The translations under genes were made by a program, and so were the position numbers. Shown here one piece after another: positions 41,134 to 63,816 of a stretch of DNA of 64,000 bases. Origin of the DNA: an uncultured bacterium (GTDB taxonomy: Bacteria > Chlamydiota > Chlamydiia > Chlamydiales > SM23-39); contig CAZVXF010000005.1 in the NCBI GenBank assembly GCA_964630875.1, positions 199 through 64,198 of the forward strand, written 5' to 3'. The stretch's first letter is position 1. Each line of letters starts with the position of its first letter. The notes below the pieces were generated by a model. The model saw only the letters and a program-made list of their open reading frames with translations, was not told the DNA's origin and did not search any database.

Positions 41134-43842
41134 GTGCGTATTAGTGTTTTAATTTTTTCTTATTCTATTTCAGCATTTGCAGCAGATAGTTTTTGGAATG
41201 ATGCTGTCAACGGAAGTTCATGGAACTTTGCAAATCATTGGTCTCCTTCGGGGGTTCCAGGAGCTGCTAATACTGCGATCTTTAATACAATCGCAACCAA
41301 TCTGTCTGATCAATTCAAGATTTCAATCATTGCACCAGTCACTGTTGGCTCAATGGAATTCAACAATGAAAATCCCGCAACAGGCTACTGGATTTTTGGA
41401 ATGACTCCACTGCAACTCAATGCAAACATTGGCAATTCCTTTATTTCTGTGAAAGCAAATAACCACTCGCAAGTGCTGATTGACGTTCCAATCATTCTGG
41501 GAAAAGATTTAGAGATCATCAATGGAAGCGCAAATCCGATTATTTTGAACCAAAAGTTATCCGGAGCCAGCCGCAATGTGAGAGTGGCAGGTCTTACTGA
41601 GTTTTCAGGTTCCGAACCAAATTCATATACAGGAATGACAAAGGTCAAAAACGGAACACTTTTTTTGAATAAATCAAAAGGTGTGAACGCAATTTCCGGA
41701 AACCTCATCATAGATTCTGGAAGCGTCGAGTATTTGAGCGACTTGCAAGTTGCAAATTCAAGTATTGTTACCTTGCAGGATAACGCAGTCTTCAATCTTA
41801 ACTCTCACCAGGAAACCATTCGAACCCTTCAACTTAAAAAAAGCTCTTCACCAAACACTGTAAAAATCGGTGTCGATGGTGCCCTTTCGATCTCTGATAC
41901 TCTAGAACTTGCAGATCACTCAAGCATTGAAGGTTTAGGTTCCTTATTTCTTTCAGGTGATCATGCAAAAATCTCCTTCATCGGTTCAACACATTATGGT
42001 CAGATCAATACTGCGCTTCATTTAGGCAACCAAATGAGAACCATCGAGGTCAATGCAAATCCTCCCTTATCTTTAAATGGCCCTATCTTAGATGGCGGAA
42101 TCATTAAAACAGGCGCTGGGATTCTGGAGATCGCAACCCATGCGAATCTTTCAGGCTTTGTCATCGAAGAAGGCGGTGTCCATCTCAATGGAAGACTTGC
42201 AAGTGTAAGCCCTGTTCAAATTTATCCAGATGCGTTTTTATATGGGAAAGGTTCAATTGATGGGAATTTAGTGATTCACGGAACGGTGTCTGTCGGAGAA
42301 ATCATTCCCGACAATACCTCTTATGACAAAACAGAGTATTTCTCATTTGATAAAGTTTCAGACATTGAAAATTCTAAATCCCAACTTCTGTTTTTGACTG
42401 GAGATTTCCAATCCGCGCATGTTTCAGAAGGGATTCATGTCAATGGGGATATCACTTTCTCGCCTCAATCAACTCTTGTGATTAAGTTTAGTCCAAATCT
42501 GTTAAGCCGCATTGATACGACTGGGAAAATCATTCTTGATTCGACAAATATTTTATTAAGCCCAACAGAAGGAATTTACAACCTCAATCAGAAATATGAC
42601 ATTCTTTATGCGGGATCAATTTCAGGACAAATCGGAACCGTGTCGAGCCGATTTGCACTCATTAATCCAATCATTTCATACATTACAGAGGACTCTTATA
42701 CAGCCGTCTCTTTTACTTTATCTCTCAATCACTTCTCAGATTTATTTACCTCTGGGAACGCATCACTTGTAGCTGCCTATTTAGATTCACTTGCTTTAGA
42801 TCCGCACGATAATTCGCCAATTATTATCGAGGCTTTGATCAATACACCCACCCTCAAAGAAATTAGCGATTCACTCTCGCAATTGCAACCCTCTGCTTTT
42901 ACCTCTCTTCCAGTCTCTTTAGAGAACGATCTTTTTTATATCCGTAATTCGATTTATAGTCGGTTGTATCAAGAACAACAAAATTGTCTATGCATTATTG
43001 AAAATGAATGCCCCATTCATGTTTGGGGAGGGGCCTTTGGCGGTATTGCAAACCAAATCAATCAAAGTGGCGAGCCAGGTTTTCGAGCCTCGTCTCCTGG
43101 CGCAATTTTAGCAGTGGATGCAAACATCAAGGAAAATGTTGTTTTGGGTGGCGCTGTTGGTTACCTATACACTTTTCATGAGTGGAAACGACATCGTGGC
43201 GATGCAAACATTCATACAATTTCTGGATCTATCTACTCACAATATGCAAAACCAACAAGCTTCTTTGTTGGAAATATCACAGGAGGTTATAGCTTCTATG
43301 ATGTGGACCGCAAAATCAATTTAGGCCCAGGAAATGTTTTACACGCTAATGCAAATAGCCGCTTTGGAGGATTCGAAGGTTCTATTGATCTAAAATTTGG
43401 AGCCCATTTTCCTGTGCGATCAACAATTATTACTCCATTTCTTGGTTTTGATTACATGGTCGTTCATCAAAATGAAGCACATGAACATGGCGCGCGTGTT
43501 TTGAATCTTAATATTGAAAGTCATATTGCCGATCTTCTTACAAGCGAAGGCGGATTTGAATTTAGCTTTTGTCATTGGAAAGATCAGACCTTCTTAAAAG
43601 CGCTCCTGCGATTGAGTGCGATCGCAGAAAGCCGTTTCTTTGGCAAAACGGTAGAAGCCTCTTTCCACACAGGCGGAAAGTTTAAAGCAAGAGGGCTTTA
43701 CCCATCACGCGTTCTTGGCGCCTTTGGAGCAGGCCTTAGTGCTTCCTTTGACAGAAGCACAATCTTCATATCCTATCAAGCGAAGACAAATTGGAATTTT
43801 ACTGACCAATTCTTAACGCTTGAATACCTCTGGAGATTTTAA
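41134..43842 (+). CDS. Autotransporter outer membrane protein (Pmp-like passenger plus C-terminal beta-barrel)
   Basis: GTG start with signal peptide MRISVLIFSYSISAFA. The passenger carries autotransporter-associated beta-strand repeats (YTGMTKVKNGTLFLN, GGIIKTGAGILEI). The C-terminal roughly 280 aa form a beta-barrel-like region ending in ...LEYLWRF. Confidence 0.8.
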   Translation: MRISVLIFSYSISAFAADSFWNDAVNGSSWNFANHWSPSGVPGAANTAIFNTIATNLSDQFKISIIAPVTVGSMEFNNENPATGYWIFGMTPLQLNANIGNSFISVKANNHSQVLIDVPIILGKDLEIINGSANPIILNQKLSGASRNVRVAGLTEFSGSEPNSYTGMTKVKNGTLFLNKSKGVNAISGNLIIDSGSVEYLSDLQVANSSIVTLQDNAVFNLNSHQETIRTLQLKKSSSPNTVKIGVDGALSISDTLELADHSSIEGLGSLFLSGDHAKISFIGSTHYGQINTALHLGNQMRTIEVNANPPLSLNGPILDGGIIKTGAGILEIATHANLSGFVIEEGGVHLNGRLASVSPVQIYPDAFLYGKGSIDGNLVIHGTVSVGEIIPDNTSYDKTEYFSFDKVSDIENSKSQLLFLTGDFQSAHVSEGIHVNGDITFSPQSTLVIKFSPNLLSRIDTTGKIILDSTNILLSPTEGIYNLNQKYDILYAGSISGQIGTVSSRFALINPIISYITEDSYTAVSFTLSLNHFSDLFTSGNASLVAAYLDSLALDPHDNSPIIIEALINTPTLKEISDSLSQLQPSAFTSLPVSLENDLFYIRNSIYSRLYQEQQNCLCIIENECPIHVWGGAFGGIANQINQSGEPGFRASSPGAILAVDANIKENVVLGGAVGYLYTFHEWKRHRGDANIHTISGSIYSQYAKPTSFFVGNITGGYSFYDVDRKINLGPGNVLHANANSRFGGFEGSIDLKFGAHFPVRSTIITPFLGFDYMVVHQNEAHEHGARVLNLNIESHIADLLTSEGGFEFSFCHWKDQTFLKALLRLSAIAESRFFGKTVEASFHTGGKFKARGLYPSRVLGAFGAGLSASFDRSTIFISYQAKTNWNFTDQFLTLEYLWRF

Positions 43843-52632: not shown

Positions 52633-53616
52633 ATGCGAGCGATGGTCTTAGAAGCTCTTCATAGCCCTCTAATTTTAAGAGAAGTTCCTCGCCCCACTCC
52701 AAATCCAAACGAAGCGCTGATACAAGTAAAAACATGCGGTGTTTGCAGAACTGATCTTCACATCGTTGATGGTGAACTTCCCACACCCACACTTCCTCTC
52801 ATATTAGGTCATCAAGTAGTAGGGATCATCAAAGAATTGGGTAAAAATGTCTCTAAATACAAAGTTGGTGATCGAGTAGGTGTCCCATGGCTTGGAGGCA
52901 CTTGCCACACTTGCGAATTTTGTCTATCCAACAGAGAAAACCTGTGCGATCAAGCAATCTACACTGGATACACACGAAACGGTGGATATGCCGACTTTTG
53001 TACAGCGCATGAAGATTATATGATCCCTCTCTATCACGACCATGACGATCTACATACTGCACCCCTACTCTGCGCAGGTCTGATTGGCTATCGGGCTTTT
53101 CGATTAGCAAGTCCTTCTAAAACAATTGGCTTTTATGGTTTTGGATCCTCCGCTCATATATTGATTCAAGTGGCGATTGCTTTGGGCTCGGAAGTCTATG
53201 TATTCACTCGAAAAGGCGATCTAGAAACGCAAAACTTTGCCTACTCATTAGGGGCAAAATGGGCCGGAGGATCGGACGAACTTTCCCCCATTCCCCTAGA
53301 CGCTGCAATTATTTTTGCACCCGTCGGCGCGCTTTATCCACAAGCCTTAAAAACAATTAAAAAAGGCGGGAAAGTGATCAGCGCTGGCATTCATATGAGC
53401 GATATTCCCTCATTTCCGTATCGTCTATTGTGGGAAGAGCGATCCATCTCCTCCGTTGCCAACCTCACGCGTCAAGATGGACTTGATTTTATGCAGCTCA
53501 TTCAACAAATTCCCATTCAGGTTAAAGCAACCCCCTATTCATTAACAGACGTCAATCAAGCTCTTTCAGCGATCCGTAACGGATCCCTCGACGGTTCTGC
53601 AGTCATTACCATCTAG
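52633..53616 (+). CDS. Zinc-dependent alcohol dehydrogenase (MDR family)
   Basis: Catalytic Zn motif GVCRTDLH, structural Zn cluster CHTCEFCLSNRENLC and the Rossmann motif GFGSSAH. Confidence 0.85.
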   Translation: MRAMVLEALHSPLILREVPRPTPNPNEALIQVKTCGVCRTDLHIVDGELPTPTLPLILGHQVVGIIKELGKNVSKYKVGDRVGVPWLGGTCHTCEFCLSNRENLCDQAIYTGYTRNGGYADFCTAHEDYMIPLYHDHDDLHTAPLLCAGLIGYRAFRLASPSKTIGFYGFGSSAHILIQVAIALGSEVYVFTRKGDLETQNFAYSLGAKWAGGSDELSPIPLDAAIIFAPVGALYPQALKTIKKGGKVISAGIHMSDIPSFPYRLLWEERSISSVANLTRQDGLDFMQLIQQIPIQVKATPYSLTDVNQALSAIRNGSLDGSAVITI

Positions 53617-54167
53617 GGAATTGCAAAACAAGCATCCGATTTTTGAGTTTGTTTGGGTATAATATGCTTACAAATCTTCGTAGCCTTTTCAAAAGGCTCT
53701 TCAAGAATTGTTCGTCCTATAACGGTTGAATCACTTACTTTGTATTTAATATTACCTTTATCAACGGATACAATAATCAAATCACTTACATCGTTTCCCA
53801 TATTGTCCTGAAAGAAAATAACCATTTCGATATTGTCAGGAGTGAAAGGATACTTTGCTAAATAAGGCCTAATTTTTTCATTTTCATTAATTGCAGTAAC
53901 AAGAATATTGACGCAATCGATAATCATAGGTCTCGTTTCATCTATTGTAAGAGGCCTTCTGCATTCAAAAGCTAAATATAACATTTTGATTTCATCCATC
54001 ATTTGTCCTCCATTACCAAAAGGACTTAATCCATATTTCTTTGTGATGGCTTTAGCAGTATTTACAAGGACTGAATTCGCTAGTTTTTCTTTTTCGCTGA
54101 CTGGGTATGATGTTTGGGTGCTACAGCTACAAAATAAAAATAAAAAAATTAAGCACACCTTAATCAT
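53613..54167 (-). CDS. Hypothetical lipoprotein (candidate immunity partner of the upstream hydrolase)
   Basis: Lipobox LFLFCSCS. There is an 8-nt overlap with the upstream gene. The C-terminal roughly 10 codons run into the repeat junction. Confidence 0.5.
   Translation of the reverse strand: MIKVCLIFLFLFCSCSTQTSYPVSEKEKLANSVLVNTAKAITKKYGLSPFGNGGQMMDEIKMLYLAFECRRPLTIDETRPMIIDCVNILVTAINENEKIRPYLAKYPFTPDNIEMVIFFQDNMGNDVSDLIIVSVDKGNIKYKVSDSTVIGRTILEEPFEKATKICKHIIPKQTQKSDACFAIP
53615..53662. repeat. Composite repeat junction: GGAATTGCAAAAC motif fused to the right half of the TATACCCAAACAA palindrome
   Basis: agggaattgcaaaac (identical to the MITE terminal repeat at 15271..15285) is followed by ccgatttttgagtttgtttgggtataat (identical to 46983..47010). 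This marks the core/island boundary. Confidence 0.65.
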
Positions 54168-55401
54168 TGTAAATCCCTTTTCTTAATAAATAATCATCAA
54201 TATGCTGAAATAACACTTTAAAATATGTGCGACTTCGATAATTATGATCCATTCCTTCTGCTTCAGGATGAGGTTCCAAAATAATTAATTCTCCACGATT
54301 GGCTATCGCTTTTTGCAGTCGCTCATCTAAGAGTCTGCCTTTGTATCCTGTTAAAGAATTTACTATGGCTGTTTCTGCTGAGCATAAATATATTTCAGCA
54401 TTAGGAACAATATCGGCCTTACTCGCGTAATTATAAGATTTATAACACAGATTAGTTGGGATAAGAGTTGCCGGCGCTATAGCTATTACTATAATCCTTT
54501 CACGAACCTCTTTTGGGAGTCCTTCCAATGCATTTTTCACATGAATAGTACCTTGACTATGACAATTCTGCAAATATTTTGCATGAGGGTTATTTTTATT
54601 TTCTTCATGAAATACAAGCCAGTTCTCTCTCAGCAATTTCTCAGTGATCGGAGAATATCCAGACATATTCACTAAACCTGCTTCAATTCCATCTAAAATC
54701 GGATTATTCGAACAATTATATACCCACTCTACTGCTAATTCCTTCGTAAACTTTTTTAAGTACTCTGAGTTTAAAACCGCATCACAAAGAGAATTCCCTA
54801 TCCCGTTTATACCACCGATTCTCATTGTAGGCTGCTGATTACCCGTAGTTCTAAATGTCATAGAAGTATTGTATTGCGGTTTTAGAGGTAAAACTTCAGG
54901 ATCCGCAATGTAATCCATGTATTGTGATTCAAATAGCCAATGACCCCAATTTTGTTGCAAGGGCATCATTTCCGATGAAAAAACAGGTAAATTCCTATCT
55001 AACTTAGGGATTTCGGTGTATGTGTTGCTTGGAACGCTTGAAACTTGAGAATCACTATTCAGACCTTCCGCAAGAGCAGCAACACCCGAACAAAGAGCTG
55101 AATCTGCTACTAGAGCGGCCACGCCGGCAGTCAGAATAATCGCTGCCGTCACAGCAGCACCATCGAGAATTACTCCTCCCGTAATCAAGATAATTTTTTT
55201 ATGTTTTTGCCAAAAAGATTTTTTCTCCTTCGTCGACTTATGAGAAAAAAGCTGTGTGTTTTGTGCAACTTTCGCAATCTTTTCAACGCCAGACTGATCA
55301 CTCCATACGAACTTTTTATGAAATTTTTCTCCATCTAAATATGTGCTATTTTCAGAAAAGAGAACGGAATTGAATTCACAAGAATCAATAGTAGCCATCA
55401 C
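54160..55401 (-). CDS. Membrane-anchored alpha/beta-hydrolase-like protein (lipase-type nucleophile elbow)
   Basis: Bilobed Gly/Ala-rich hydrophobic region (IILITGGVILDGAAVTAAIILTAGVAALVADSALCSGVAALA), an oxyanion-like IGGINGIGNS, a nucleophile elbow CHSQG, and later Asp/His candidates (ASKADIV and GMDHNY). Confidence 0.55.
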   Translation of the reverse strand: MMATIDSCEFNSVLFSENSTYLDGEKFHKKFVWSDQSGVEKIAKVAQNTQLFSHKSTKEKKSFWQKHKKIILITGGVILDGAAVTAAIILTAGVAALVADSALCSGVAALAEGLNSDSQVSSVPSNTYTEIPKLDRNLPVFSSEMMPLQQNWGHWLFESQYMDYIADPEVLPLKPQYNTSMTFRTTGNQQPTMRIGGINGIGNSLCDAVLNSEYLKKFTKELAVEWVYNCSNNPILDGIEAGLVNMSGYSPITEKLLRENWLVFHEENKNNPHAKYLQNCHSQGTIHVKNALEGLPKEVRERIIVIAIAPATLIPTNLCYKSYNYASKADIVPNAEIYLCSAETAIVNSLTGYKGRLLDERLQKAIANRGELIILEPHPEAEGMDHNYRSRTYFKVLFQHIDDYLLRKGIYND

Positions 55402-55654
55402 AATCTCCAGAGAAAATTTTAATGGCGAATTCTAAAAAAATATGTTGATATTTTCAACAACACTTTTGACGAGAGGGCTCTCAACAAAGAGCTCCTAATT
55501 TTAAAAATTGTACTAATAAAATACTCTGTACTACAGCGTTTCATTAATTTTGACAATTGTTGGGTAAAGCTTTTTTAGTTTGATTCTTGCATCCTCAACA
55601 GTGAATCGCCAATCAACAACATGTGCATCTTTGTTTCTGTTCTCCCCGACGTAG

Positions 55655-55910
55655 CATAGTATAGCCAGAAAGCATTGGTCGATAGAGAACGGGCTACATC
55701 GATCTTTAGATATGGTGTTTAAGGAAGATTCAGCACAGGAACATGATCGAAATGCAGCCGCTAATTTATCTGTGTTACGCAAAATTGCTCTCTCGCTTCT
55801 GAAAGCAATAGATCCTCATAAGAAGTTAAAAATTAAAATGAAAGAATGTGCTTACTCACCAGTTTTTCGCAGTCGTTCTTTATTGGGAGAATTTTAATGC
55901 GTCAGTTCTG
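55655..55910 (+). mobile_element. 3' remnant of an ISAs1-family IS (transposase C-terminal 81 codons plus the IS end)
   Basis: The in-frame translation HSIARKHWSIENGLHRSLDMVFKEDSAQEHDRNAAANLSVLRKIALSLLKAID... matches the conserved HW.IEN.LHW.LDV.F.ED..R.R..NA..NLA.LR..ALNLL C-terminus of ISAs1 (H-repeat) transposases (recall). It has no N-terminal roughly 290 aa. Its last roughly 110 nt are repeated in inverse orientation at 60166..60275. Confidence 0.75.
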
Positions 55911-56027: not shown

Positions 56028-57875
56028 GTGCGATATTTTCTGTTCCTATTATGCATAAGTTTTTCTCTTTTTCCTAATGATGATTGGGAAGATAAAGAAA
56101 CTTTCCAGTATGGATCTTTTGTAACATATGCTGGTTTGGAGTTGCGATGCGACAGAGGTTGTGGGGATCCTGAATACGATCGAAATGCAGATAAAATAAA
56201 TTACCTATGTTGTGAATGGTTGCGGAAGCCAATTAATCCTGACTTCTATTCTCGGTTGCGGTGGAGGCATGCGGAAAATGTAAATCTACAACCTTGGGAA
56301 TCTTCTACACTGAGTCGTTCCGACTGGGAAGGCAGTTTTGAAAGATTTGAGGAATATGAAGATGAAGGCATGTCTCATGGAGAATTTCTAAAAACTTCTT
56401 CTGAATTTTTAGAAGAGATAAGCAATCTTGCTTTCGTTTCACAAGAAGATCTCCAGCATCATAAAAAAAATATTCAAAAAATCCAGGAATTACAAACCCT
56501 TGGAGCTCGTTTCATTGAGTGGAATGACGAAGACGAAGTAGAGGGATATGAACGAGGATCGTTCAATTCTTCTACTATTCGAAATGCAATGGATTCAGAA
56601 ACAAGAGCCGTTTCTCGGTGTGAAAGAGAACTGGAATGTTATGAGCAATATCGGGATTATGCAGAAGATACTTTTCGACTTGTAGATGCAACATTCAAAA
56701 AAATATTCATCAATTGTCTGGAGAAACACCAGTCTGAGGGGATTACTTTTCGCGCCGCTCTAAATGATCTAATGCAGAATAACTTAGACGATGCTCTTGA
56801 ACGACTTGAGTTTTTAGTAAAGCTCGCAGAAACAAAAAATTGGGACGGAAAATTGATTGCTAAACTGCAATTACTCCAAGGAGAAGTGGAGAATGAGCTT
56901 TGCCTTTACGCTGATGCGATTGTAACTCTAACTTCTTCCATACAGCGCGATCCTAGTTGTAAAGAAACTTATCTCGAACGAGCGAGAGCTTACTTTGAAA
57001 CTGGCGAATTTGAATCGGCTTTTCAAGATTTCTTATCTTCAGGCATCAAAAGTACTCCAATTGATCCCCAAAATAAATCCCTTATCGCTTTTGCTTCTGG
57101 CATTATGTCTGGAACTCTGCGCGGAGGTCAAGAGGGGCTAACAGAGTTCATTCCTTCATTGATTACTTCTTTAAAAATGCTTGGATCAGGGGTTTGGGCT
57201 TTTGTTCAAAATCCAGTAGAAATTTCTTCCGAATTTGCTAACGCGGTATACGATATAGTTGAATCTGTGCAATCGTTTGAGGATTTCTCTTCTATCTTAA
57301 TCCCGGAATTAAAGGATCTAGTTTCCAATTGGGAAGAAATGTCCTCTTTTCAAAAGGGAGGGTCTTGTGGTCACATTATAGGAAAATATGGGATCGATAT
57401 TCTTTTACCTTTGGGTGTTGCAAAAGGAGGAAAAGCATTTGTTAAATTGAGACAAGCTTCTGCAGTTCATGTATTTGAATCATATGTAAAAACGGAAACA
57501 AACGCATTGCAACTTCAGAAAAAAGCTCAATTAGCGCTAGCGCGCAGAACTGGTCAATTAAAAAATGCTGCCTACGCAGAAATTGAGGATAGAAAAATTA
57601 CTAAATATGCATTGGAAAAAAGTGGCAAATCTAATGGTTTCAGAGAGATTTTAGGTTATAATGAATCAAACTGGGAAGAACTGCAAGATAGCATTAAAAA
57701 AGGTATTTTGAAAAATAAGGCTAAGTTCCATAAGATTGATCAGTATGGCGTTAAATTTTCAGTAGATATGTTAATTGAAGGGCCTAAGGGTAAAGCTAAC
57801 GTTAGAACAGGATGGATATACGATCTGGGAAGCGATAAGCCACGCCTTACTACACTGTTTGTATGCACGAAGTAG
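56028..57875 (+). CDS. Polymorphic-toxin-like secreted protein A1 (conserved N-terminal and TPR regions, Gly-rich hydrophobic module, DUF6883-like C-terminal tip)
   Basis: GTG start with a hydrophobic N-terminus MRYFLFLLCISFSLF. It shares CD.GCGDP.YD and EGYER motifs and a TPR-like segment with the 61304 paralogue. The C-terminal segment KITKYALEKSGKSNGFREILGY...W..L...DQYGVKFSVDMLIEGPKGKANVRTGWIY...PRLTTLFV fits my recollection of the DUF6883 pattern. Confidence 0.7.
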   Translation: MRYFLFLLCISFSLFPNDDWEDKETFQYGSFVTYAGLELRCDRGCGDPEYDRNADKINYLCCEWLRKPINPDFYSRLRWRHAENVNLQPWESSTLSRSDWEGSFERFEEYEDEGMSHGEFLKTSSEFLEEISNLAFVSQEDLQHHKKNIQKIQELQTLGARFIEWNDEDEVEGYERGSFNSSTIRNAMDSETRAVSRCERELECYEQYRDYAEDTFRLVDATFKKIFINCLEKHQSEGITFRAALNDLMQNNLDDALERLEFLVKLAETKNWDGKLIAKLQLLQGEVENELCLYADAIVTLTSSIQRDPSCKETYLERARAYFETGEFESAFQDFLSSGIKSTPIDPQNKSLIAFASGIMSGTLRGGQEGLTEFIPSLITSLKMLGSGVWAFVQNPVEISSEFANAVYDIVESVQSFEDFSSILIPELKDLVSNWEEMSSFQKGGSCGHIIGKYGIDILLPLGVAKGGKAFVKLRQASAVHVFESYVKTETNALQLQKKAQLALARRTGQLKNAAYAEIEDRKITKYALEKSGKSNGFREILGYNESNWEELQDSIKKGILKNKAKFHKIDQYGVKFSVDMLIEGPKGKANVRTGWIYDLGSDKPRLTTLFVCTK

Positions 57876-57882
57876 AAAATCT

Positions 57883-58446
57883 ATGAACGTCGGCGATAAA
57901 ATTTTAATTACTTATAATATTTCTCTAAGAAATTTAAAAGGCTTTATCGTGTCTTCTCTTCCCCCAGTCAATTCAAAAACGTACTTGGTTAAAATTTCTT
58001 TTAAAAAGCCGCTTTTTGTCACAGTAAAAGAATCTGAATTTATTCGAGTGGGTAAGAAAGAAGTACGTTTATCTGCTCCTTCTTTTTTCCATGAAACAGG
58101 ATGTGATGGAACGATCGTCGGCGTGCTACCTCGCAGCCACTATCTTTGCGAATTTGATGAGCCTTTCTGTAATATTATCCTTAAAGAAAAGGAAATTATG
58201 AAATGGGAGCCAGAGAAAGGGGTTTTTGCTCTTTTAGATGTTGTCCGGCTCACAGAAGATTTTCCTGAATATAACTTAAAAAAGGGCGCTGAAGGAACTA
58301 TTGTCCTTGTATTCTTTAAGCCATCCCTTGCGTATGATGTTGAATTTCATTTTGGAGAAGATGCAGATCCACCATGGGATAACTTCACATTTTCGCCACA
58401 TCATCTCGAATTTGTTCGGAGTCTTTCAAGCTCACTTCAGAATTGA
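57883..58446 (+). CDS. Immunity-like protein I1 (three tandem small beta-rich modules, the last DUF4926-like)
   Basis: The ATG lies 7 nt after the A1 stop, at the same relative position as in the I2 copy. The C-terminal segment LDVVRLTEDFPEYNLKKGAEGTIVLVF...AYDVEF fits the DUF4926 pattern (recall). The ORF-track start at 57775 would overlap A1 by 100 nt and is not conserved between the two copies. Confidence 0.65.
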   Translation: MNVGDKILITYNISLRNLKGFIVSSLPPVNSKTYLVKISFKKPLFVTVKESEFIRVGKKEVRLSAPSFFHETGCDGTIVGVLPRSHYLCEFDEPFCNIILKEKEIMKWEPEKGVFALLDVVRLTEDFPEYNLKKGAEGTIVLVFFKPSLAYDVEFHFGEDADPPWDNFTFSPHHLEFVRSLSSSLQN

Positions 58447-58753
58447 TACAGGGTGTCGTAGAACAAACCACGACAAAAAACTTTTTTTATAGTAGAATTA
58501 CTTTTAGAGTTTATCCGAAAATAAGTCCGAGGAAATAGCTGCAAAATCTCGGACGCAAAAATTATTTAAGAAAGCCTTATAAATGAGCAATTATCGAAGC
58601 CATCAAGACTTAGTCACAAAATATGAAGAATGTGAAAAAAAGTTACGCTCTTTGAAATGTATGGATTTTCAGCACAACTCATTGTTACTATTTTGTTATT
58701 CTGTTTAAATAACCTACATATAAATCATTTCTATTCATGCTTTGCACTTCTTG

Positions 58754-59578
58754 ATTGATCCCCAAAATAAATCCCTTATCGCTTTTGCTTCTGGCATTAT
58801 GTCTGGAACTCTGCGCGGAGGTCAAGAGGGGCTAACAGAGTTCATTCCTTCATTGATTACTTCTTTAAAAATGCTTGGATCAGGGGTTTGGGCTTTTGTT
58901 CAAAATCCAGTAGAAATTTCTTCCGAATTTGCTAACGCGGTATACGATATAGTTGAATCTGTGCAATCGTTTGAGGATTTCTCTTCTATCTTAATCCCGG
59001 AATTAAAGGATCTAGTTTCCAATTGGGAAGAAATGTCCTCTTTTCAAAAGGGAGGGTCTTGTGGTCACATTATAGGAAAATATGGGATCGATATTCTTTT
59101 ACCTTTGGGTGTTGCAAAAGGAGGAAAAGCATTTGTTAAATTGAGACAAGCTTCTGCAGTTCATGTATTTGAAGCTTACGTTAAATCAGAAACAAACGCT
59201 TTGCAACTTCAGAAAAATGCTCAATTAGCACTTGTCGACAAAGTGAAGAAAACAGGTCAATTGAAAAATGCCAAGTCGGCTATTCTTTATGATGACAAAT
59301 TCACAAAATATGCATTGAAAAACGACGGAAAAGTTAAAGGATTTAGAGAAATATTAGGCTTTAATGAAACAAATTGGACAGAGCTGCAAGATAAAATTAA
59401 AAAAGGAATTTTGGAAAATATGGCAAAATTCCATAAGATAGACAAGCATGGAGCTAAATTTACAATTGACATGATAATTGAAGGCCCAAAAGGCAAGTCA
59501 AATGTTAGAACTGGATGGATATACAAACCTGGAAAAGAGCAGCCCGAGCTTACGACTTTATTCGTTTGCACAGAGTAA
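58754..59578 (+). pseudogene. Orphan C-terminal cassette A2' (start-less duplicate of A1 residues from about 345 onward, with a diverged DUF6883-like tip)
   Basis: 58754..59173 showed no mismatch to 57060..57479 in a manual comparison, and the sequence then diverges. There is no N-terminal domain and no ATG at the homology boundary, only a TTG at 58742. The frame is open to 59578. Confidence 0.7.
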
Positions 59579-59585
59579 AAAATTA

Positions 59586-60149
59586 ATGAAAAATGGCGAT
59601 AAAATCCTTATCAAGGATAGCTTTGTATTGAATGAAGCAAAGGGAACAATTTTGGCTTCGTTACCACCAGTTAATTCTAAGAAACTTCTTGTAGAAGTTT
59701 CTTATAAAAAACCATTGATCCTTGAGCTTGATGAATCAGAAGTAACAAGATCTGATAAGAATAAACATGTTCGAATTTCCAAATACTACTGTCAAGAAGA
59801 AGGAAGTGCTGGAACAATTGTGCAAGTTTTGCGCCGTGGTAAGTATCTTTGCGAGTTTGATGGCCCTTTTTGTAATATGATTTTAAAGGAAAAAGAAATT
59901 ATGAAATGGGAGCCAGAGAAAGGGGTTTTTGCTCTTTTAGATGTTGTCCGGCTCACAGAAGATTTTCCTGAATATAACTTAAAAAAGGGCGCTGAAGGAA
60001 CTATTGTCCTTGTATTCTTTAAGCCATCCCTTGCGTATGATGTTGAATTTCATTTTGGAGAAGATGCAGATCCGCCATGGGATAGCTTCACATTTTCTCC
60101 ACATCATCTCGAATTTGTTCGGAGTCTTTCAAGCACACTTCAGAATTGA
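59586..60149 (+). CDS. Immunity-like protein I2 (paralogue of I1, diverged N-terminal two modules, near-identical C-terminal module)
   Basis: Same length (187 aa) and spacing as I1. The final roughly 85 codons are nearly identical to I1, and the first roughly 100 are clearly diverged. Confidence 0.65.
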   Translation: MKNGDKILIKDSFVLNEAKGTILASLPPVNSKKLLVEVSYKKPLILELDESEVTRSDKNKHVRISKYYCQEEGSAGTIVQVLRRGKYLCEFDGPFCNMILKEKEIMKWEPEKGVFALLDVVRLTEDFPEYNLKKGAEGTIVLVFFKPSLAYDVEFHFGEDADPPWDSFTFSPHHLEFVRSLSSTLQN

Positions 60150-60165
60150 TATAAGGGTGTCGTAG

Positions 60166-60275
60166 CAGAACTGACGCATTATAATTCTCCCAATAAAGAC
60201 AGGCTACGAAAAACAGGCGAGTAAGCACACTCTTTCATTTTGATTTTTAACTTCTTATGAAAATCTATTGCTTTC
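60166..60275 (-). mobile_element. Short 3' remnant of the same ISAs1-family IS, in inverted orientation
   Basis: The reverse complement aligns to 55801..55910 with scattered mismatches and encodes LKAIDFHKKLKIKMKECAYSPVFRSLSLLGEL*. Homology stops at the same terminal sequence ...taatgcgtcagttctg. Confidence 0.75.
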
Positions 60276-60634
60276 AAATCACCCACCTTGAAGTGGACCC
60301 CAAAACTGGACAGGTCAATACGGCTGTAGAAATTCTAAACGATTCACGAGGGCCCTCTTAGGATACCCAAACAATTTACCCCTCCATAAAGAACCAAGTC
60401 AATAGGTTTTGCTGAGGTGTTGTCAATTCACTGCCCTCCCCTTCTCATTGAAAGGTAAAAAATGACCATCCCAATTTCTCTTAATTATTGTGCAAGTGGG
60501 GAGAAAAATCGTATCACGTAAAAAAATAAATCATTCCCATGAGTGGATACTTGGTGCAGAAAAATTCGCCGGTACGCTAAGTGTAGGTTTAAAAAGTGCT
60601 TTTTGAAAACAATATGGAGATCCTCCCCTGACAT

Positions 60635-61303: not shown

Positions 61304-63169
61304 ATGTTGCATTTTCTTCTTTTTTTCTTATTTGGTGCTTTAAGCTCATTATTTTCATCTTCCGATTGGGATGAGGATAATAACTATTCCAGGTCTCTTG
61401 TCTCCTATGGAGGGATAAGTTTTTATTGTGATAATGGATGCGGAGATCCTAAATATGATTCTGAAGAAGCAGCTATCGAGTGGCTGTATACATGTTGGTT
61501 AGATAAACCATTGTATGCTTCACAACCCTTCTCGAGAAAAGACAATCATTTTATAGAGAAATTTGGGCTTTGCTCATGGACTGGCAATCAATTTTTTGAT
61601 ACGAGCATGCGCAGTTTCTTTTGGGAGGATGAGTTAAATGAAACTCATACTGGATTTCTTAAAATTTCTTCTGATTTTTTAGCAGGACTCCTTGAGATCA
61701 GGAATGAATGCGAAAAAAACATTGAAGAGTCTAAACAAAACATAAAGACTATCGAAGATCTTCAGTCTCAGGGGGCTCGCTTCATCGAAATCAACGGGGA
61801 TGAAATTGAGGGCTATGAACGCTGCTCGTGGAAAAGCACACCAATCGCGGAGGCTATTCAAGACGAAATTCGGGCGATTGCTTTTCAGCAATCCGATCTA
61901 GAAGAATGTGATCAATATCAAAAATATGCCGAAAATACTTTTGATCTGATCGATTCTCTCTACAGAAATATTTTTGTGTGGTGTTTAGAACACCACCAAC
62001 CTGAAGGGATTATTTTTAAAGAAGCGGTGGAAAATTTTATCGCTGCGGATTATGACAAAGCAATCGAGCAGATCAGGTTTTTGATCTCTCTTTCAGAAAA
62101 ACGTGCCTTTAATCCTGAATTAATCTCAAAACTCTACCTTCTTAAAGGGCAGTTCCAATCAGAGTTTTGTCAATATTCAGATGCTATTATCGCATTGACA
62201 ATAGCAATTGAGAAGGATCCAACGCAAAAAGAGACTTATTTCGAAAGAGCTGTCGCATATTTCGAGCTGGGACAATTTGAAAAATCTCTAGAGGATTATC
62301 TCTTATCAGACTTTGAAAATATTTCACCTAAAAACAAATTACAACGAGGTTTTTTTTCTTCCATCAGCTCCGGCGTTGTAATGGGGATCCTGGAAGGGGC
62401 CGCCAATTCTGCTACCGAATTTGTCCCCGAGACTTTGAGTTCTCTACGAGGAATAGGAAATGGACTATGGGCTTTTTCCAAAGATCCAATAGGAGCTTCA
62501 GTCGCTTTTGTGGAAGCCGCGACTCAATGCATAGAATACCTTGTAGAAAACTCGTCTGTCCAGATTGCCCAAGATTTGGTACCGGAACTCAAAAAATTAA
62601 TTCAGAACTATGACGATCTCGCTGACTTCGAGAAGGGCAAACTTATCGGTTATATTATTGGGAAATATGGAGCAGATATTTTGATGTGTCAATACTCTGT
62701 CAAAGCAGTAAAGGCTTATCGAAATCTCAAAAAAGCTAATCAACTTATGACCCTGGAAGCTTTAGCTTCACCCAAAAATGTTGAAAAAACATTGCAGGAA
62801 GCAAGTCAAAAATTTTGGGCTCAGAGAACTGCTATTTTGAAACAGAATAATCTCAAGATTCACCAAGGAAGACAAGGGAAGCATCTAGAGGATCATATAA
62901 ATTACCAAGAGCTTAAAAAGAGAAAGAAAAACCCCAGTATTTTCCAACATCCAGATCCACAACGATTACTTCAGACGTACGCTGGAACAGGAAGAAAAGT
63001 TTCAAGAGAACTACCTGGAACCACAGGGTATAGAGAAATTGTAGATTTTGAAGAATTTATAGGATATGCTGTTAACGAAATAACAGGAGAAAAAACGGCT
63101 ACCACCTTTGGGAAAATTCATTATGCCAAAGATGGAGTTCATATTGTCCCCTGTATCGGAAAAAACTAA
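61304..63169 (+). CDS. Polymorphic-toxin-like secreted protein A3 (same N-terminal architecture as A1, Ntox50-like C-terminal tip)
   Basis: Collinear with A1 through the N-terminal Cys motif (CDNGCGDPKYD), EGYER, the TPR-like block and the Gly-rich module (FSSISSGVVMGILEGAANSATEFVPETLSSLRGIGNGLWAF). The C-terminal segment HQGRQGKHLEDHINY...REIVDFEEFIGYAV...TGEKTATTFGKIHYAKDGVHIVPC matches my recollection of the polymorphic toxin type 50 domain (GKQ.KH...V.F...IG......T..G.IHYSK.G.HIVP). Confidence 0.7.
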   Translation: MLHFLLFFLFGALSSLFSSSDWDEDNNYSRSLVSYGGISFYCDNGCGDPKYDSEEAAIEWLYTCWLDKPLYASQPFSRKDNHFIEKFGLCSWTGNQFFDTSMRSFFWEDELNETHTGFLKISSDFLAGLLEIRNECEKNIEESKQNIKTIEDLQSQGARFIEINGDEIEGYERCSWKSTPIAEAIQDEIRAIAFQQSDLEECDQYQKYAENTFDLIDSLYRNIFVWCLEHHQPEGIIFKEAVENFIAADYDKAIEQIRFLISLSEKRAFNPELISKLYLLKGQFQSEFCQYSDAIIALTIAIEKDPTQKETYFERAVAYFELGQFEKSLEDYLLSDFENISPKNKLQRGFFSSISSGVVMGILEGAANSATEFVPETLSSLRGIGNGLWAFSKDPIGASVAFVEAATQCIEYLVENSSVQIAQDLVPELKKLIQNYDDLADFEKGKLIGYIIGKYGADILMCQYSVKAVKAYRNLKKANQLMTLEALASPKNVEKTLQEASQKFWAQRTAILKQNNLKIHQGRQGKHLEDHINYQELKKRKKNPSIFQHPDPQRLLQTYAGTGRKVSRELPGTTGYREIVDFEEFIGYAVNEITGEKTATTFGKIHYAKDGVHIVPCIGKN

Positions 63170-63816
63170 TGCAATTCCCCATATATTATGTTCTCTTAAG
63201 TGTACAGACTGCTCTAGAGAATGCCATCACTCCTCAATTACGTGCTGTAACGGTTGATCTTGATGAAAAAAAACGTGAGCTGCTTGTGTGTTTTTTCTAT
63301 CACGGAGAGATTACGGAGGAATTACGCACTTTGTCAAGCGTTGTCATGGCAGAAGTAGATGTAAATGCAAAAGAACATTACTCAATGTATGAAAACTCTG
63401 TTCAGGTGGATTTTCCAAAGAAAATTCCAATTCAGGGACGATTGGTTTTTTTGCGAAATGAACCAAATCTTCCTCAAATAGAAAAAGAAAATAGAAACTT
63501 TCTTCTTAAAGAATGGCCTCCTATAGCTGTTTTTCGGCTGAATATGCAGGAAGCTCTCTTGGGAAGAATATCTCCGTCTTTACGGCTTGTTAGCGTAGGA
63601 ATAAATGAAGATCAGAAACAACTCATATCGCATTTCATCTACGATGGAGAAATCTCAGAAGAGGACATGAACATGGCTTCTTCTGCAATTAATGAAGCTA
63701 GTTCCTTTTTCCCTCAATATAAAATCAATTCCTCCATTGAGAGAATTGATTTCCCAAATCAGATGCTTCCTCGTGGAACATGGGCTGTTTACTTAAGGCA
63801 AGAATGGAAATACTAA
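63169..63816 (+). CDS. Immunity candidate I3 (two tandem repeats of about 100 aa)
   Basis: The ATG overlaps the A3 stop (TAATG), which suggests translational coupling. The two halves are internally repeated (L.NAITPQLRAVTVDLDEKKRELLVCFFYHGEITEE versus LLGRISPSLRLVSVGINEDQKQLISHFIYDGEISEE). Confidence 0.6.
   Translation: MQFPIYYVLLSVQTALENAITPQLRAVTVDLDEKKRELLVCFFYHGEITEELRTLSSVVMAEVDVNAKEHYSMYENSVQVDFPKKIPIQGRLVFLRNEPNLPQIEKENRNFLLKEWPPIAVFRLNMQEALLGRISPSLRLVSVGINEDQKQLISHFIYDGEISEEDMNMASSAINEASSFFPQYKINSSIERIDFPNQMLPRGTWAVYLRQEWKY

Follow-up and report, generated by a model that had tools for sequence, protein, structure and literature searches.

Old toxin-tip and predicted immunity alleles between near-identical flanks in a main-plus-orphan polymorphic toxin locus of a chlamydia-like bacterium

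Orphan cdiA-CT/cdiI modules of contact-dependent inhibition (CDI) loci were reportedly described by Poole et al. in 2011. Such modules also feature in PMC3967940 and PMC4927057. In Salmonella Typhimurium, Koskiniemi et al. (2014, PMC3967940) found 522 bp of 95% identity in common between the main and orphan genes of an Rhs locus, and demonstrated that recombination between these stretches joins the scaffold to the tip of the orphan. In pathogenic Neisseria, silent mafB-CT cassettes without a start codon are present in islands that have truncated IS elements at their borders (Jamet et al. 2015, PMC4287609). Two further papers describe homologous recombination among immunity paralogues arranged in tandem (EsaG/TsaI, T7SS; PMC9484751) and arrays in which older effector-immunity modules were displaced one after another (Vibrio cholerae T6SS; PMC5361080). 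A 2026 preprint (bioRxiv 10.64898/2026.08.28.747851) assigns DUF6883 (BECR-Tox3) to the predicted BECR-fold RNases, with DUF4926 as the partner, and places such pairs on phage MuF or minor-capsid carriers. The locus described here, which is located in a window of 64,000 nucleotides, is a polymorphic toxin system and shows the main-plus-orphan architecture of CdiA, Rhs and MafB in a toxin family of chlamydial bacteria that was previously uncharacterised. Its features are as follows.

55640..55910, plus strand: truncated 3' end of an ISAs1-family transposase gene with IS end (NCBIfam NF033564; inverted repeat)
56028..57875, plus strand: full-length polymorphic toxin, 615 aa, GTG start (ORF list, Pfam)
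57060..57479, plus strand: left homology arm, copy 1; pretoxin domain, codons I345-E484; perfect 420-nt repeat
57480..57875, plus strand: variable toxin part, allele A; linker, DUF6883 (57558-57866) and stop codon
57883..58446, plus strand: putative immunity gene A, 187 aa; Pfam DUF4926, E 4.8e-15, 55.1 bits (cutoff 29.1)
58192..58461, plus strand: right homology arm, copy 1; 179 perfect nt and a 91-nt tail (mismatch list)
58462..58753, no strand: unique inter-cassette spacer, 292 nt, AT-rich, 29.8% GC
58754..59578, plus strand: orphan toxin fragment, 274 aa; pretoxin (58754-59173) and allele B tip; Pfam DUF6883, E 1.5e-17
59586..60149, plus strand: putative immunity gene B, 187 aa; Pfam DUF4926, E 2.3e-17, 62.6 bits
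60166..60276, minus strand: second truncated ISAs1-type end, inverted, directly abutting copy 2 (inverted repeat)
61304..63169, plus strand: third toxin family member, 621 aa, Ntox50 tip; Pfam Ntox50, E 4.9e-24
63169..63816, plus strand: gene downstream of the Ntox50 toxin, 215 aa, probably its immunity gene

As in the Rhs locus, a full-length toxin gene and its putative immunity gene are followed by a 5'-truncated CT fragment with an immunity gene of its own, and the conserved stretch retained by the orphan, which in Salmonella Rhs is of the length and identity noted above, is 420 bp at 100% here. However, YD/Rhs repeats, PAAR and a T6SS context are absent, and the scaffold consists of a signal-like N-terminus, TPR and a Gly-zipper pretoxin domain. 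Because the toxin and immunity families are identical in both cassettes here, homology is also present downstream, in the last module of the immunity gene. The resemblance to MafB/MafI extends to a Sec signal-peptide-dependent toxin, to start-less CT cassettes which keep the motif region and are each followed by an immunity gene, and to the truncated IS flanks; the boundary motif closing the conserved N-terminal domain is DWVKN or VSGDF in MafB and L[KR]xAN...TLE here. However, no DUF1020 domain was found here in a Pfam search, only one orphan is present, and the phylum and lifestyle differ, the organism here being obligate intracellular and chlamydia-like. With the orphan cdiA-CT/cdiI modules the locus shares tandem displaced pairs of tip and immunity gene downstream of the main gene, whose conserved upstream remnants permit homologous recombination, but the TPS domain, FHA repeats, VENN motif and CdiB partner of CDI loci are absent. 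The EsaG/TsaI and Vibrio arrays, as described, consist for the most part of immunity genes without a tip and are linked to T7SS or T6SS, whereas a complete tip-plus-immunity unit with homology arms on both sides is seen here. The BECR-Tox3 pairs combine these toxin and immunity families in the gene order seen here, as tested on 9 metagenomic loci. In those loci, however, the immunity protein has one module only, of 56-79 aa, and the toxin is carried by a phage head protein or has no carrier, whereas here the immunity protein is 187 aa long, its canonical module is C-terminal, and a chlamydial TPR scaffold serves as the carrier.

The main toxin has a signal-like N-terminus (MRYFLFLLCISFSLF), whose MRYF start is shared by the homologue P0002, and a Cys-rich region, followed by TPR (aa 294-337; weak Pfam matches), the pretoxin domain (aa 345-484) and the allele A DUF6883 tip (aa 511-613; Pfam E 2.7e-18, 66.7 bits for a cutoff of 27). 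In family alignments, the motifs GxxxGxxxG (G358/G362/G366) and GKYG (452-455) of the pretoxin domain are nearly invariant, and the left arm stops precisely at E484, the final residue that is conserved in the family; the breakpoint coincides with the family boundary motif ending at this residue. The pretoxin domain is matched by 478 cluster representatives (E<=1e-3), and the tips of the 81 that were scanned are Ntox50 (41), DUF6883 (2), colicin/pyocin DNase (1) or unrecognised (the rest). The scaffold of the neighbouring paralogue at 61304 is 38% identical to that of the main toxin over 512 aa, and the Ntox50 toxin and its downstream ORF recur as a pair in another locus (L012; 55% and 51% identity). 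An AlphaFold model of the DUF6883 tip contains helices and a 4-stranded sheet (pLDDT 74.6), and a fold search with it gave no significant PDB match (best E 0.02). From its family membership, the tip is a predicted BECR-fold RNase and would be toxic as such, and the DUF4926 protein encoded just downstream is likewise its predicted neutralising partner. A DUF4926 gene lies directly 3' of DUF6883 in the 4 related loci holding both (L001, L013, L014, L016); in the distant metagenomic loci a small ORF follows DUF6883 in 9 of 9, and 4 of the 7 scanned match DUF4926 at E<=1e-4, 3 of them above the Pfam cut-off. The initial annotation had described a three-module immunity protein, and this description is weakly supported: module 3 is a clear DUF4926 (58231-58347 in gene A, within the conserved C-terminal module; 59934-60050 in gene B), but module 2 is marginal and module 1 was not detected. 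The structure model of the immunity protein is poor (pLDDT 52.5).

The second copy is a 5'-truncated orphan, and its being a second gene is ruled out. The fragment aligns with an intact reading frame to residues 345-614 of the main toxin and has its DUF6883 at 59258-59569, but it has no ATG or GTG start and no signal peptide, and its frame closes upstream 12 codons before 58754, with only TTG codons on offer. It shows the known orphan-cassette layout of polymorphic toxin loci, and the orphan tip with its antidote is a candidate silent spare of the active toxin gene. In a promoter scan, sites were no more numerous than in shuffled sequence. Because an orphan was not found in any other available locus of this toxin family, the recurrence of the layout is undocumented.

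Global alignment of the two units and BLASTN bear out the duplicated units of 57060-58461 and 58754-60165 that were initially proposed, with an abrupt onset of homology at 57060/58754, its end at 58461/60165, and a direct-repeat spacing of 1694 nt start to start that is constant on the left side. The first 420 nt, which had been read as free of mismatches, are indeed so (57060-57479 = 58754-59173) and form the longest perfect run. The diverged middle, estimated earlier at about 700 nt, is a core of 712 nt (57480-58191 versus 59174-59894) with about 66% identity overall, 45-88% per 60-nt window and one 9-nt indel. The last stretch of about 270 nt (59895-60165 in copy 2), which had been called near-identical, comprises 179 nt without mismatch (58192-58370 = 59895-60073) and a 91-nt tail (58371-58461 versus 60074-60165) with 5 substitutions and one 1-nt indel; in copy 1 this arm extends 15 nt beyond the stop codon of immunity gene A. 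The clustering of differences between the units is far beyond chance, the observed value being reached in 0 of 200 permutations of a two-breakpoint maximum chi-square test. The spacer between the units contains a 41-aa ORF (58583-58708) and has no match in the rest of the window, in the fetched loci or in Rfam. On the left, the translation of 55640..55910 matches positions 268-314 of 314 of the ISAs1 transposase profile NF033564 (E 5.2e-15), and an inverted repeat of 111 nt, 90% complementary, connects 55800-55910 with 60166-60276, whose minus-strand translation KAIDFHKKLKIKMKECAYSPVFRSLSLLGEL* parallels the left remnant; this second remnant marks the right limit of the repeat.

The coding sequences show the same mosaic. 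The C-terminal 105 aa of the toxin are 70% identical between alleles A and B (pS 0.63 over the whole variable part and 0.66-0.67 for the tip; dN/dS 0.13-0.14). The immunity proteins are 75% identical overall, with 55% for residues 1-109 (57883-58191 in gene A) and 97% for residues 110-187. At synonymous sites, divergence of the copies amounts to 0 for the pretoxin flank and 0.04 for the C-terminal immunity module, whereas it is saturated in the core (pS 0.63-0.85). This immunity module reaches pS 0.5-0.74 when genomes are compared, so that constraint by itself does not account for the flanks; an overlapping functional RNA constraining the flank codons was not found. A related metagenomic locus, L001, was used as the third sequence in a topology test on informative sites. 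The flank sites give (copy1,copy2)|L001 (94:0:0 and 27:0:0), but the core sites favour (copy2,L001)|copy1 (58:32:23 and 80:19:35). Because L001 groups with the core of the orphan only, but equally with both copies' flanks, the cores are old alleles. In agreement with this, the tip of allele B is 76% identical to that of L001, and the N-terminal part of immunity B is closest to the L001 protein (72% amino acid identity; all other pairs 44-57%). The flanks, in contrast, were recently made identical, by gene conversion or duplication. Uniform drift after a duplication, which the initial annotation had rejected, is excluded by the synonymous divergence and by the switch in topology, and the suggested sliding-window identities display the mosaic. 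Its two proposed explanations, gene conversion and cassette exchange at conserved flanks, are possible and not mutually exclusive. The idea of specificity co-evolution is compatible with the data; however, dN/dS is 0.09-0.31 in all segments that allowed an estimate of dS, hence nothing at the locus shows fast adaptive divergence, and the divergence is old rather than fast.

The history that we consider likely is that of a two-cassette array in a Sec-dependent polymorphic toxin system of a chlamydia-like obligate intracellular bacterium, in which the cores are old and the flanks were homogenised by recombination. The orphan would be an old, different allele (B) of tip and immunity which kept 420 nt of the pretoxin-coding region and lost its start codon, signal peptide and scaffold. 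Allele B was probably resident in the lineage, because in the one outgroup locus on which this is judged, L001, a related locus with a complete cassette, it is B that is present on the main gene; as allele A is now on the main gene, B would have been displaced downstream. The two cores (tip and N-terminal part of the immunity protein) would have diverged anciently and been kept apart, and the flanks would have become identical recently through intragenomic homologous recombination. At least two gene conversion tracts are favoured, which would end where divergence becomes too high, viz. at the E484 codon and in the linker before the third immunity module.

However, if a recent tandem duplication of the 1694-nt B unit (57060-58753) occurred, and the core of copy 1 was then replaced by a foreign allele A through a double crossover inside the conserved flanks, i.e. 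by cassette exchange, then the identity of the flanks will be a leftover of duplication and not a result of gene conversion. A variant of this is the Campbell-type insertion of a circular A-cassette fragment via the 420-nt homology. The constant left spacing with its abrupt boundary and the sharp breakpoints on either side of the core fit such a course of events, as do the grouping of the B core with L001 and the equal distance of the A core to every relative, and the IS remnant at 60166 could have removed a second copy of the spacer. However, the 91-nt tail is about 6% diverged, whereas no mismatch is present in the neighbouring 179 nt or in the 420 nt (599 nt in all; Fisher p = 3.6e-5). Thus more than one event lies behind the flanks, and one recent duplication cannot explain all of them without a further event. 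Further, neither a second spacer copy nor a donor of allele A was found, and although the crossover needs identity in the flanks, no donor-type patch is seen beside the core. The composition of alleles A and B does not differ. We regard this explanation as unlikely, though it deserves serious consideration.

It is very improbable that the array is an assembly artefact, in which two strain haplotypes (A-type and B-type) were joined in tandem or the repeats were homogenised by polishing. The sequence appears to be from a metagenome-assembled contig, the only one in its cluster (69,115 nt), identical immunity proteins are not recorded anywhere else, and short-read assemblers have difficulty with perfect 420-nt repeats. 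However, the repeat is not a collapsed or duplicated contig end, as the initial annotation had envisaged for an artefact, but lies within the contig, at 4-7 kb from the end of the window, and the unique 292-nt spacer connects unit 1 with unit 2. Neither reading frame is interrupted, and unit 2 starts abruptly within a codon series, with no scaffold upstream and an IS remnant on its right, which are junctions that a haplotype bubble would not create. Lastly, a plain duplication after which diversifying selection made the tip and the immunity N-terminus diverge faster, with flanks conserved only by purifying selection and no recombination, has next to no probability, for although the diverged stretch is the part expected to set toxin-immunity recognition, and the divergence of the two parts is correlated (r = 0.76 across ten non-independent pairs), it is refuted by synonymous sites that are saturated in the core, unchanged in the flanks and not frozen between genomes, as well as by the low dN/dS and the topology switch.

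Under the history preferred here, of old cores between homogenised flanks, the 420-nt direct repeat would be a ready substrate for RecA-type recombination. Such recombination would delete 1694 nt, viz. tip A, immunity A and the spacer, and would fuse the scaffold in frame to tip B, thereby switching the deployed toxin. The orphan's putative immunity gene may meanwhile guard against neighbours deploying B. However, as the canonical DUF4926 module is almost identical in immunity A and B, the two may not be distinct specificities, and cross-protection between them may occur. A layout suited to such a toxin swap is well known in other bacteria, but apparently has not yet been described in chlamydia-like bacteria.

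The cassette for a putative toxin tip and its immunity protein occurs twice in the window, and the two copies are related in a mosaic manner, with two identical or nearly identical arms enclosing a strongly diverged core. Copy 1 (57060-58461) belongs to the main toxin and carries allele A of the core; copy 2 (58754-60165) is an orphan cassette carrying allele B. The toxin, immunity and other functions named in the following list are putative, as they are assigned from family membership and synteny.

Features of the locus and its surroundings (positions in the window)
27358-30424, minus strand: two tandem TLC ATP/ADP translocase genes (E about 1e-182 and 1e-187)
55640-55910, plus strand: truncated 3' end of an ISAs1-family transposase (last 47 profile positions, E 5e-15)
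56028-57875, plus strand: main toxin, 615 aa, with signal-peptide-like N-terminus MRYFLFLLCISFSLF, Cys-rich region, TPR, pretoxin domain and DUF6883
57883-58446, plus strand: immunity A, 187 aa, DUF4926 at residues 117-155 (55.1 bits versus a cutoff of 29.1)
58754-59578, plus strand: orphan toxin fragment, 274 open codons, aligned to main toxin residues 345-614
59586-60149, plus strand: immunity B, 187 aa, DUF4926 likewise at residues 117-155 (62.6 bits versus a cutoff of 29.1)
60166-60276, minus strand: truncated ISAs1-type end, a shorter piece than the left remnant
61304-63169, plus strand: paralogue with an Ntox50 tip, 621 aa, the first 512 residues 38% identical to the main toxin
63169-63816, plus strand: 215-aa ORF following the Ntox50 paralogue, no Pfam match

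The limits of both units given in the initial annotation were recovered by repeat finding, BLASTN and global alignment, and the three-part structure that it had read by eye is now defined to the nucleotide. The left arm, a 420-nt pretoxin repeat (57060-57479 and 58754-59173), is free of mismatches as had been claimed, both in the searches and in the mismatch list of the global alignment. The middle part, initially put at about 700 nt, is a core of 712 nt (57480-58191 versus 59174-59894) showing 45-88% identity per 60-nt window and one 9-nt indel. The last part, described as roughly 270 nearly identical nucleotides, consists of 179 nt that are perfectly matched in the global alignment (58192-58370 and 59895-60073), followed by a tail of 91 nt (58371-58461 versus 60074-60165) with 5 substitutions and one 1-nt indel; this tail differs significantly from the 599 perfect nucleotides (Fisher p = 3.6e-5). 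Both breakpoints are sharp, with 6 mismatches within the 15 nt past 57479 and 23 mismatches in the 72 nt preceding 58192, and in a two-breakpoint maximum chi-square test the observed clustering of differences was matched in none of 200 permutations. The layout of both cassettes is taken from one assembly, in which the two units are linked by a spacer of 292 nt (58462-58753) that has no match elsewhere in the window or in the fetched loci; because this spacer is unique, the repeat is not an artefact of a contig end, a possibility that the initial annotation had raised. The spacer has a GC content of 29.8% and contains a 41-aa ORF (58583-58708), and an Rfam search of the region 54-64 kb, inclusive of the spacer, gave no match.

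The position of the left breakpoint acquires its significance from the architecture of the toxin. In the main toxin, weak TPR matches at aa 294-337 (Pfam) are followed by a pretoxin domain without a Pfam model (aa 345-484, encoded by 57060-57479) and by a C-terminal DUF6883 tip (E 2.7e-18, 66.7 bits; the orphan tip scores 64.3 bits, and the curated Pfam cutoff is 27). A search with the 140-aa pretoxin domain alone retrieved 478 cluster representatives at E<=1e-3, in almost all of which it is located 100-250 residues ahead of the C-terminus, and all named relatives are from Chlamydiales, Parachlamydiaceae, Waddliaceae or Chlamydiota MAGs. Among 81 family members that were scanned, the tip was Ntox50 in 41, DUF6883 in 2 and a colicin/pyocin DNase in 1, the rest being unrecognised; within the window, likewise, a common scaffold carries DUF6883 in the main toxin and Ntox50 in the paralogue (38% identity). 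In family alignments G358, G362 and G366 are nearly invariant, forming a GxxxGxxxG zipper, a GKYG motif is present at 452-455, and L474, A477, N478, T482 and E484, each at least 90% conserved in the 81 sequences, form a boundary motif of the type L[KR]xAN...TLE, past which (i.e. after E484) similarity is lost. The pretoxin domain has the appearance of a domain for delivery or translocation that has not yet been described. The last codon of the perfect 420-nt block is that of E484 (57477-57479), so that the boundary of recombination falls at the point where the constant part of the toxin gives way to the variable part.

The orphan (58754-59578) lacks a signal peptide and scaffold, and retains a part of the conserved region together with its own downstream immunity gene. 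Neither ATG nor GTG is available as its start codon; its frame closes 12 codons upstream, and only TTG codons are found in that stretch. No orphan cassette was seen in the other available loci of the pretoxin family; one family protein, P0072, is short and orphan-like, and its gene is at a contig edge. In related loci from three Logan samples (L016:7148-9639, L017 and L018) a frameshift near residue 442 divides the toxin into two ORFs, of 470 aa (scaffold) and 150 aa (pretoxin/tip), downstream of which a DUF4926 protein of 202 aa with an insertion of 15 aa is encoded; this split toxin could be either a pseudogene or a programmed split.

Divergence between the two copies was estimated for each segment by the method of Nei and Gojobori. 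In these estimates the immunity protein is divided into an N-terminal part (modules 1-2) and the C-terminal, canonical DUF4926 part (module 3).

Divergence of copy 1 and copy 2 by segment
Pretoxin arm: dS 0; dN/dS not applicable
Immunity module 3: dS 0.04; dN/dS 0.27
Tip: pS 0.66-0.67; dN/dS 0.13
Immunity modules 1-2: pS 0.81-0.85, saturated; dN/dS not estimable

The calculation of dN/dS per segment, which had been suggested as a check, thus places dS of 0 and 0.04 in the arms beside pS of 0.66-0.85 in the core, and in every comparison with estimable dS the value of dN/dS was 0.09-0.31, so that the pairwise data show no sign of positive selection. As a third sequence we have used L001, an ENA metagenome contig with a single cassette, the toxin of which shares 68% identity with the main toxin. 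In the left arm, and similarly in the right perfect block, all informative sites group the two copies to the exclusion of L001 (94:0:0 and 27:0:0, respectively). In the tip and in the N-terminal part of the immunity gene, the sites favour the grouping of copy 2 with L001 to the exclusion of copy 1 (58:32:23 and 80:19:35, respectively). When five cassettes were compared, allele B was nearest to L001 (72% in immunity modules 1-2, every other pair showing 44-57%), and allele A was about equidistant from all others.

By this switch in topology and the dS pattern, a plain duplication with drift (the uniform process that the initial annotation had already excluded), conservation of the arms by constraint only, and divergence driven by positive selection are all ruled out; constraint, in particular, cannot explain the arms because module 3 shows pS of 0.5-0.74 between genomes and the pretoxin arm a dS of about 1.06 versus L001. 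Based on the topology switch and the distances between alleles, we infer that the cores represent old alleles predating the split from the L001 organism and that the arms were homogenised recently; allele B is probably the one resident here, which has since been displaced to a downstream position, the polarity being taken from one outgroup locus (L001). If a duplication was followed by an exchange of the core, a mosaic of this kind would also result, and this is a serious rival, although on the whole we consider it unlikely, as the tail, which is diverged by about 6% beside perfect tracts, speaks against a single recent duplication. The same tail requires two or more events that differ in age, and due to this, gene conversion tracts are favoured over a single recent duplication. 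The base composition of alleles A and B does not separate them and hence provides no clue to a foreign origin.

With regard to the pairing of toxin and immunity, the DUF4926 genes start 7-10 nt past both DUF6883 tips, and a DUF4926 gene follows directly after the tip in each of four related loci (L001, L013, L014 and L016). A metagenome scan with the pretoxin-plus-tip alignment retrieved only distant DUF6883 proteins (28-37% identity), which inform the pairing but not the history of the locus; in nine of these distant loci an ORF of 56-79 aa either overlaps the stop codon of the toxin or lies directly against it. Seven such ORFs were scanned, of which four match DUF4926 at E<=1e-4, and three of these four exceed the Pfam cutoff. 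In at least three distant loci (among L003, L004, L006, L007 and L010) DUF6883 is found at the C-terminus of phage MuF/minor-capsid-protein-2 carriers, and these loci, with their tiny immunity ORFs, agree with the MuF class of polymorphic toxins. In a 2026 preprint (bioRxiv 10.64898/2026.08.28.747851) DUF6883 is placed in the BECR RNase superfamily as "BECR-Tox3", with a conserved downstream DUF4926 partner and phage MuF fusions. An AlphaFold model of the tip, built from an alignment of 5 sequences (pLDDT 74.6), has helices followed by a four-stranded sheet and is compatible with the predicted BECR fold of an RNase, in which a helix is packed on an antiparallel sheet of four strands; its best match in a fold search against the PDB was not significant (E 0.02), and the match of highest probability was the TA toxin 7vd7_A (probability 0.94, E 0.045). 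Sequence and profile searches of the PDB with the tip and with the immunity protein gave no match, and the structure model of the immunity protein was too poor for use.

At 187 aa, the immunity proteins of the window are three times longer than the distant partners of 56-79 aa. Their module 3 is a clear DUF4926, module 2 is a marginal match (E 0.004, below cutoff), and in module 1 DUF4926 was undetected by profile comparison; a test for internal repeats by hhalign was likewise marginal (E 0.008-0.03, low probability). Nowhere in the cassette is variability higher than in the additional 110 N-terminal residues, and the canonical C-terminal module is conserved; divergence of the tip and of the immunity N-terminal part is correlated at r = 0.76, computed over non-independent pairs. 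A more far-reaching interpretation, which we regard as quite improbable, is that this chlamydial family possesses a special two-armed exchange unit, in which immunity would have grown from a single DUF4926 to three modules, the canonical C-terminal module serving as the constant part and as the downstream arm of DNA homology and the lineage-specific modules 1-2 as the determinants of specificity, so that the tip and the specificity modules, enclosed by the pretoxin arm on one side and the immunity arm on the other, would be exchanged as a unit. If this were true, then obligately intracellular chlamydiae would wage allele-specific warfare on co-infecting relatives within one host cell.

In the mechanism that we propose, the main toxin would be exported by Sec and delivered by its scaffold, with the glycine-zipper domain possibly acting in membrane passage, and the tip would cleave RNA in cells without the cognate DUF4926 protein. 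The orphan as it stands would not be exportable. However, the frames of the main gene and the orphan are in register (codon 345 begins at 57060 and at 58754), and if a RecA-type recombination occurred over the 420-nt direct repeat, then 1694 nt would be deleted and the scaffold fused in frame to tip B; the right arm would permit loss of the orphan or the formation of chimeric immunity genes. Recombination between main and orphan genes has been demonstrated in Salmonella Rhs, where the arm is 522 bp at 95% identity (PMC3967940), and is inferred for the silent mafB-CT cassettes of Neisseria (PMC4287609); chimeric immunity genes are described for tandem T7SS immunity paralogues (PMC9484751).

To judge from its sequence, the locus has every feature by which polymorphic toxin systems with orphan cassettes are recognised (sensu Zhang et al. 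2012, PMC3482391). It belongs to a well-described class, and a mosaic of this kind is expected under the orphan model. It is not a member of the CDI, Rhs or MafB systems, because their defining domains are absent. Of CDI, the TPS domain, FHA repeats, VENN motif and CdiB gene are all missing from the toxin and its neighbours (Pfam), although by analogy the locus would behave like an orphan CDI module. Rhs toxins are defined by a shell of RHS/YD repeats and a boundary of the type PxxxxDPxGL, whereas the scaffold here lacks RHS repeats and consists of TPR and an unclassified pretoxin domain (Pfam). The N-terminal DUF1020 of MafB is also absent (Pfam), the likeness to MafB being functional only (viz. 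a signal peptide, silent cassettes and an IS-flanked island). The boundary motifs VENN of CdiA and DWVKN of MafB are comparable to the motif ending at E484. What is less ordinary is the phylum of the host, a scaffold that is unclassified, the presence of homology arms at either side of the exchanged block, and an immunity protein of three modules, among which it is the canonical one that is conserved.

The array of two cassettes is bracketed by inverted ISAs1-type ends (55800-55910 and 60166-60276) that are 90% complementary. The left match scores 55.4 bits, under the 70-bit cutoff for the whole protein, and neither a full transposase nor the terminal inverted repeats of ISAs1 were found at the flanks; these pieces are remnants and not active elements, and may be what is left of a composite element or the trace of a deletion mediated by an IS. 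The right remnant begins one base after unit 2 ends, so that on this side the repeat is limited by the IS and not by the original event. Maf islands of Neisseria are likewise bordered by truncated IS elements (PMC4287609). Over 54-64 kb the GC content is 36-38%, compared with about 41% for the 54 kb before it; this low GC, together with a third toxin gene, gives the region the look of a toxin island. The sign of the GC skew changes around 56 kb, which with the low GC is consistent with an acquired island holding three toxin tips, and just upstream of the island two adjoining ORFs of 184 and 413 aa (53613-55401, minus strand) have no match in Pfam or NCBIfam. The Ntox50 paralogue and the 215-aa ORF recur as a pair in the fetched locus L012 (55% and 51% identity), and because of this the 215-aa ORF is probably an unclassified Ntox50 immunity gene.

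Exact look-ups of the main toxin and both immunity proteins gave no match, and no second assembly of the locus is present in the collection. A scan of species-representative genomes retrieved one Ntox50-type locus and no close relatives, a protein search with the tip alone gave a single match, the plasmid collection contained no match, and a promoter and terminator scan showed no enrichment over shuffled sequence.

Tandem TLC ATP/ADP translocases are a hallmark of energy-parasitic intracellular bacteria, and the remainder of the window, which contains polA, rho, sufB, an autotransporter gene (41134-43842) and the two TLC translocase genes, indicates that it derives from the chromosome of an obligately intracellular bacterium. 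Earlier comparative work suggested that conflict within species is mostly absent from intracellular bacteria, and Zhang et al. (PMC3482391) concluded that such bacteria seldom compete with conspecifics. However, the presence of a complete toxin-immunity pair and of an orphan pair that has been kept argues that at least this lineage competes, or recently did so. Full-text literature searches yielded no account of orphan toxin cassettes in Chlamydiae. The locus offers a clean natural case of where gene conversion tracts end beside selected, diverged cores, and it points to an uncharacterised scaffold for toxin delivery, with a nearly invariant glycine zipper, a motif ending in TLE and no Pfam model. 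It places the standard machinery of toxin diversification, viz. a main gene and a silent orphan with recombination arms, in an environmental, chlamydia-like and obligately intracellular bacterium.
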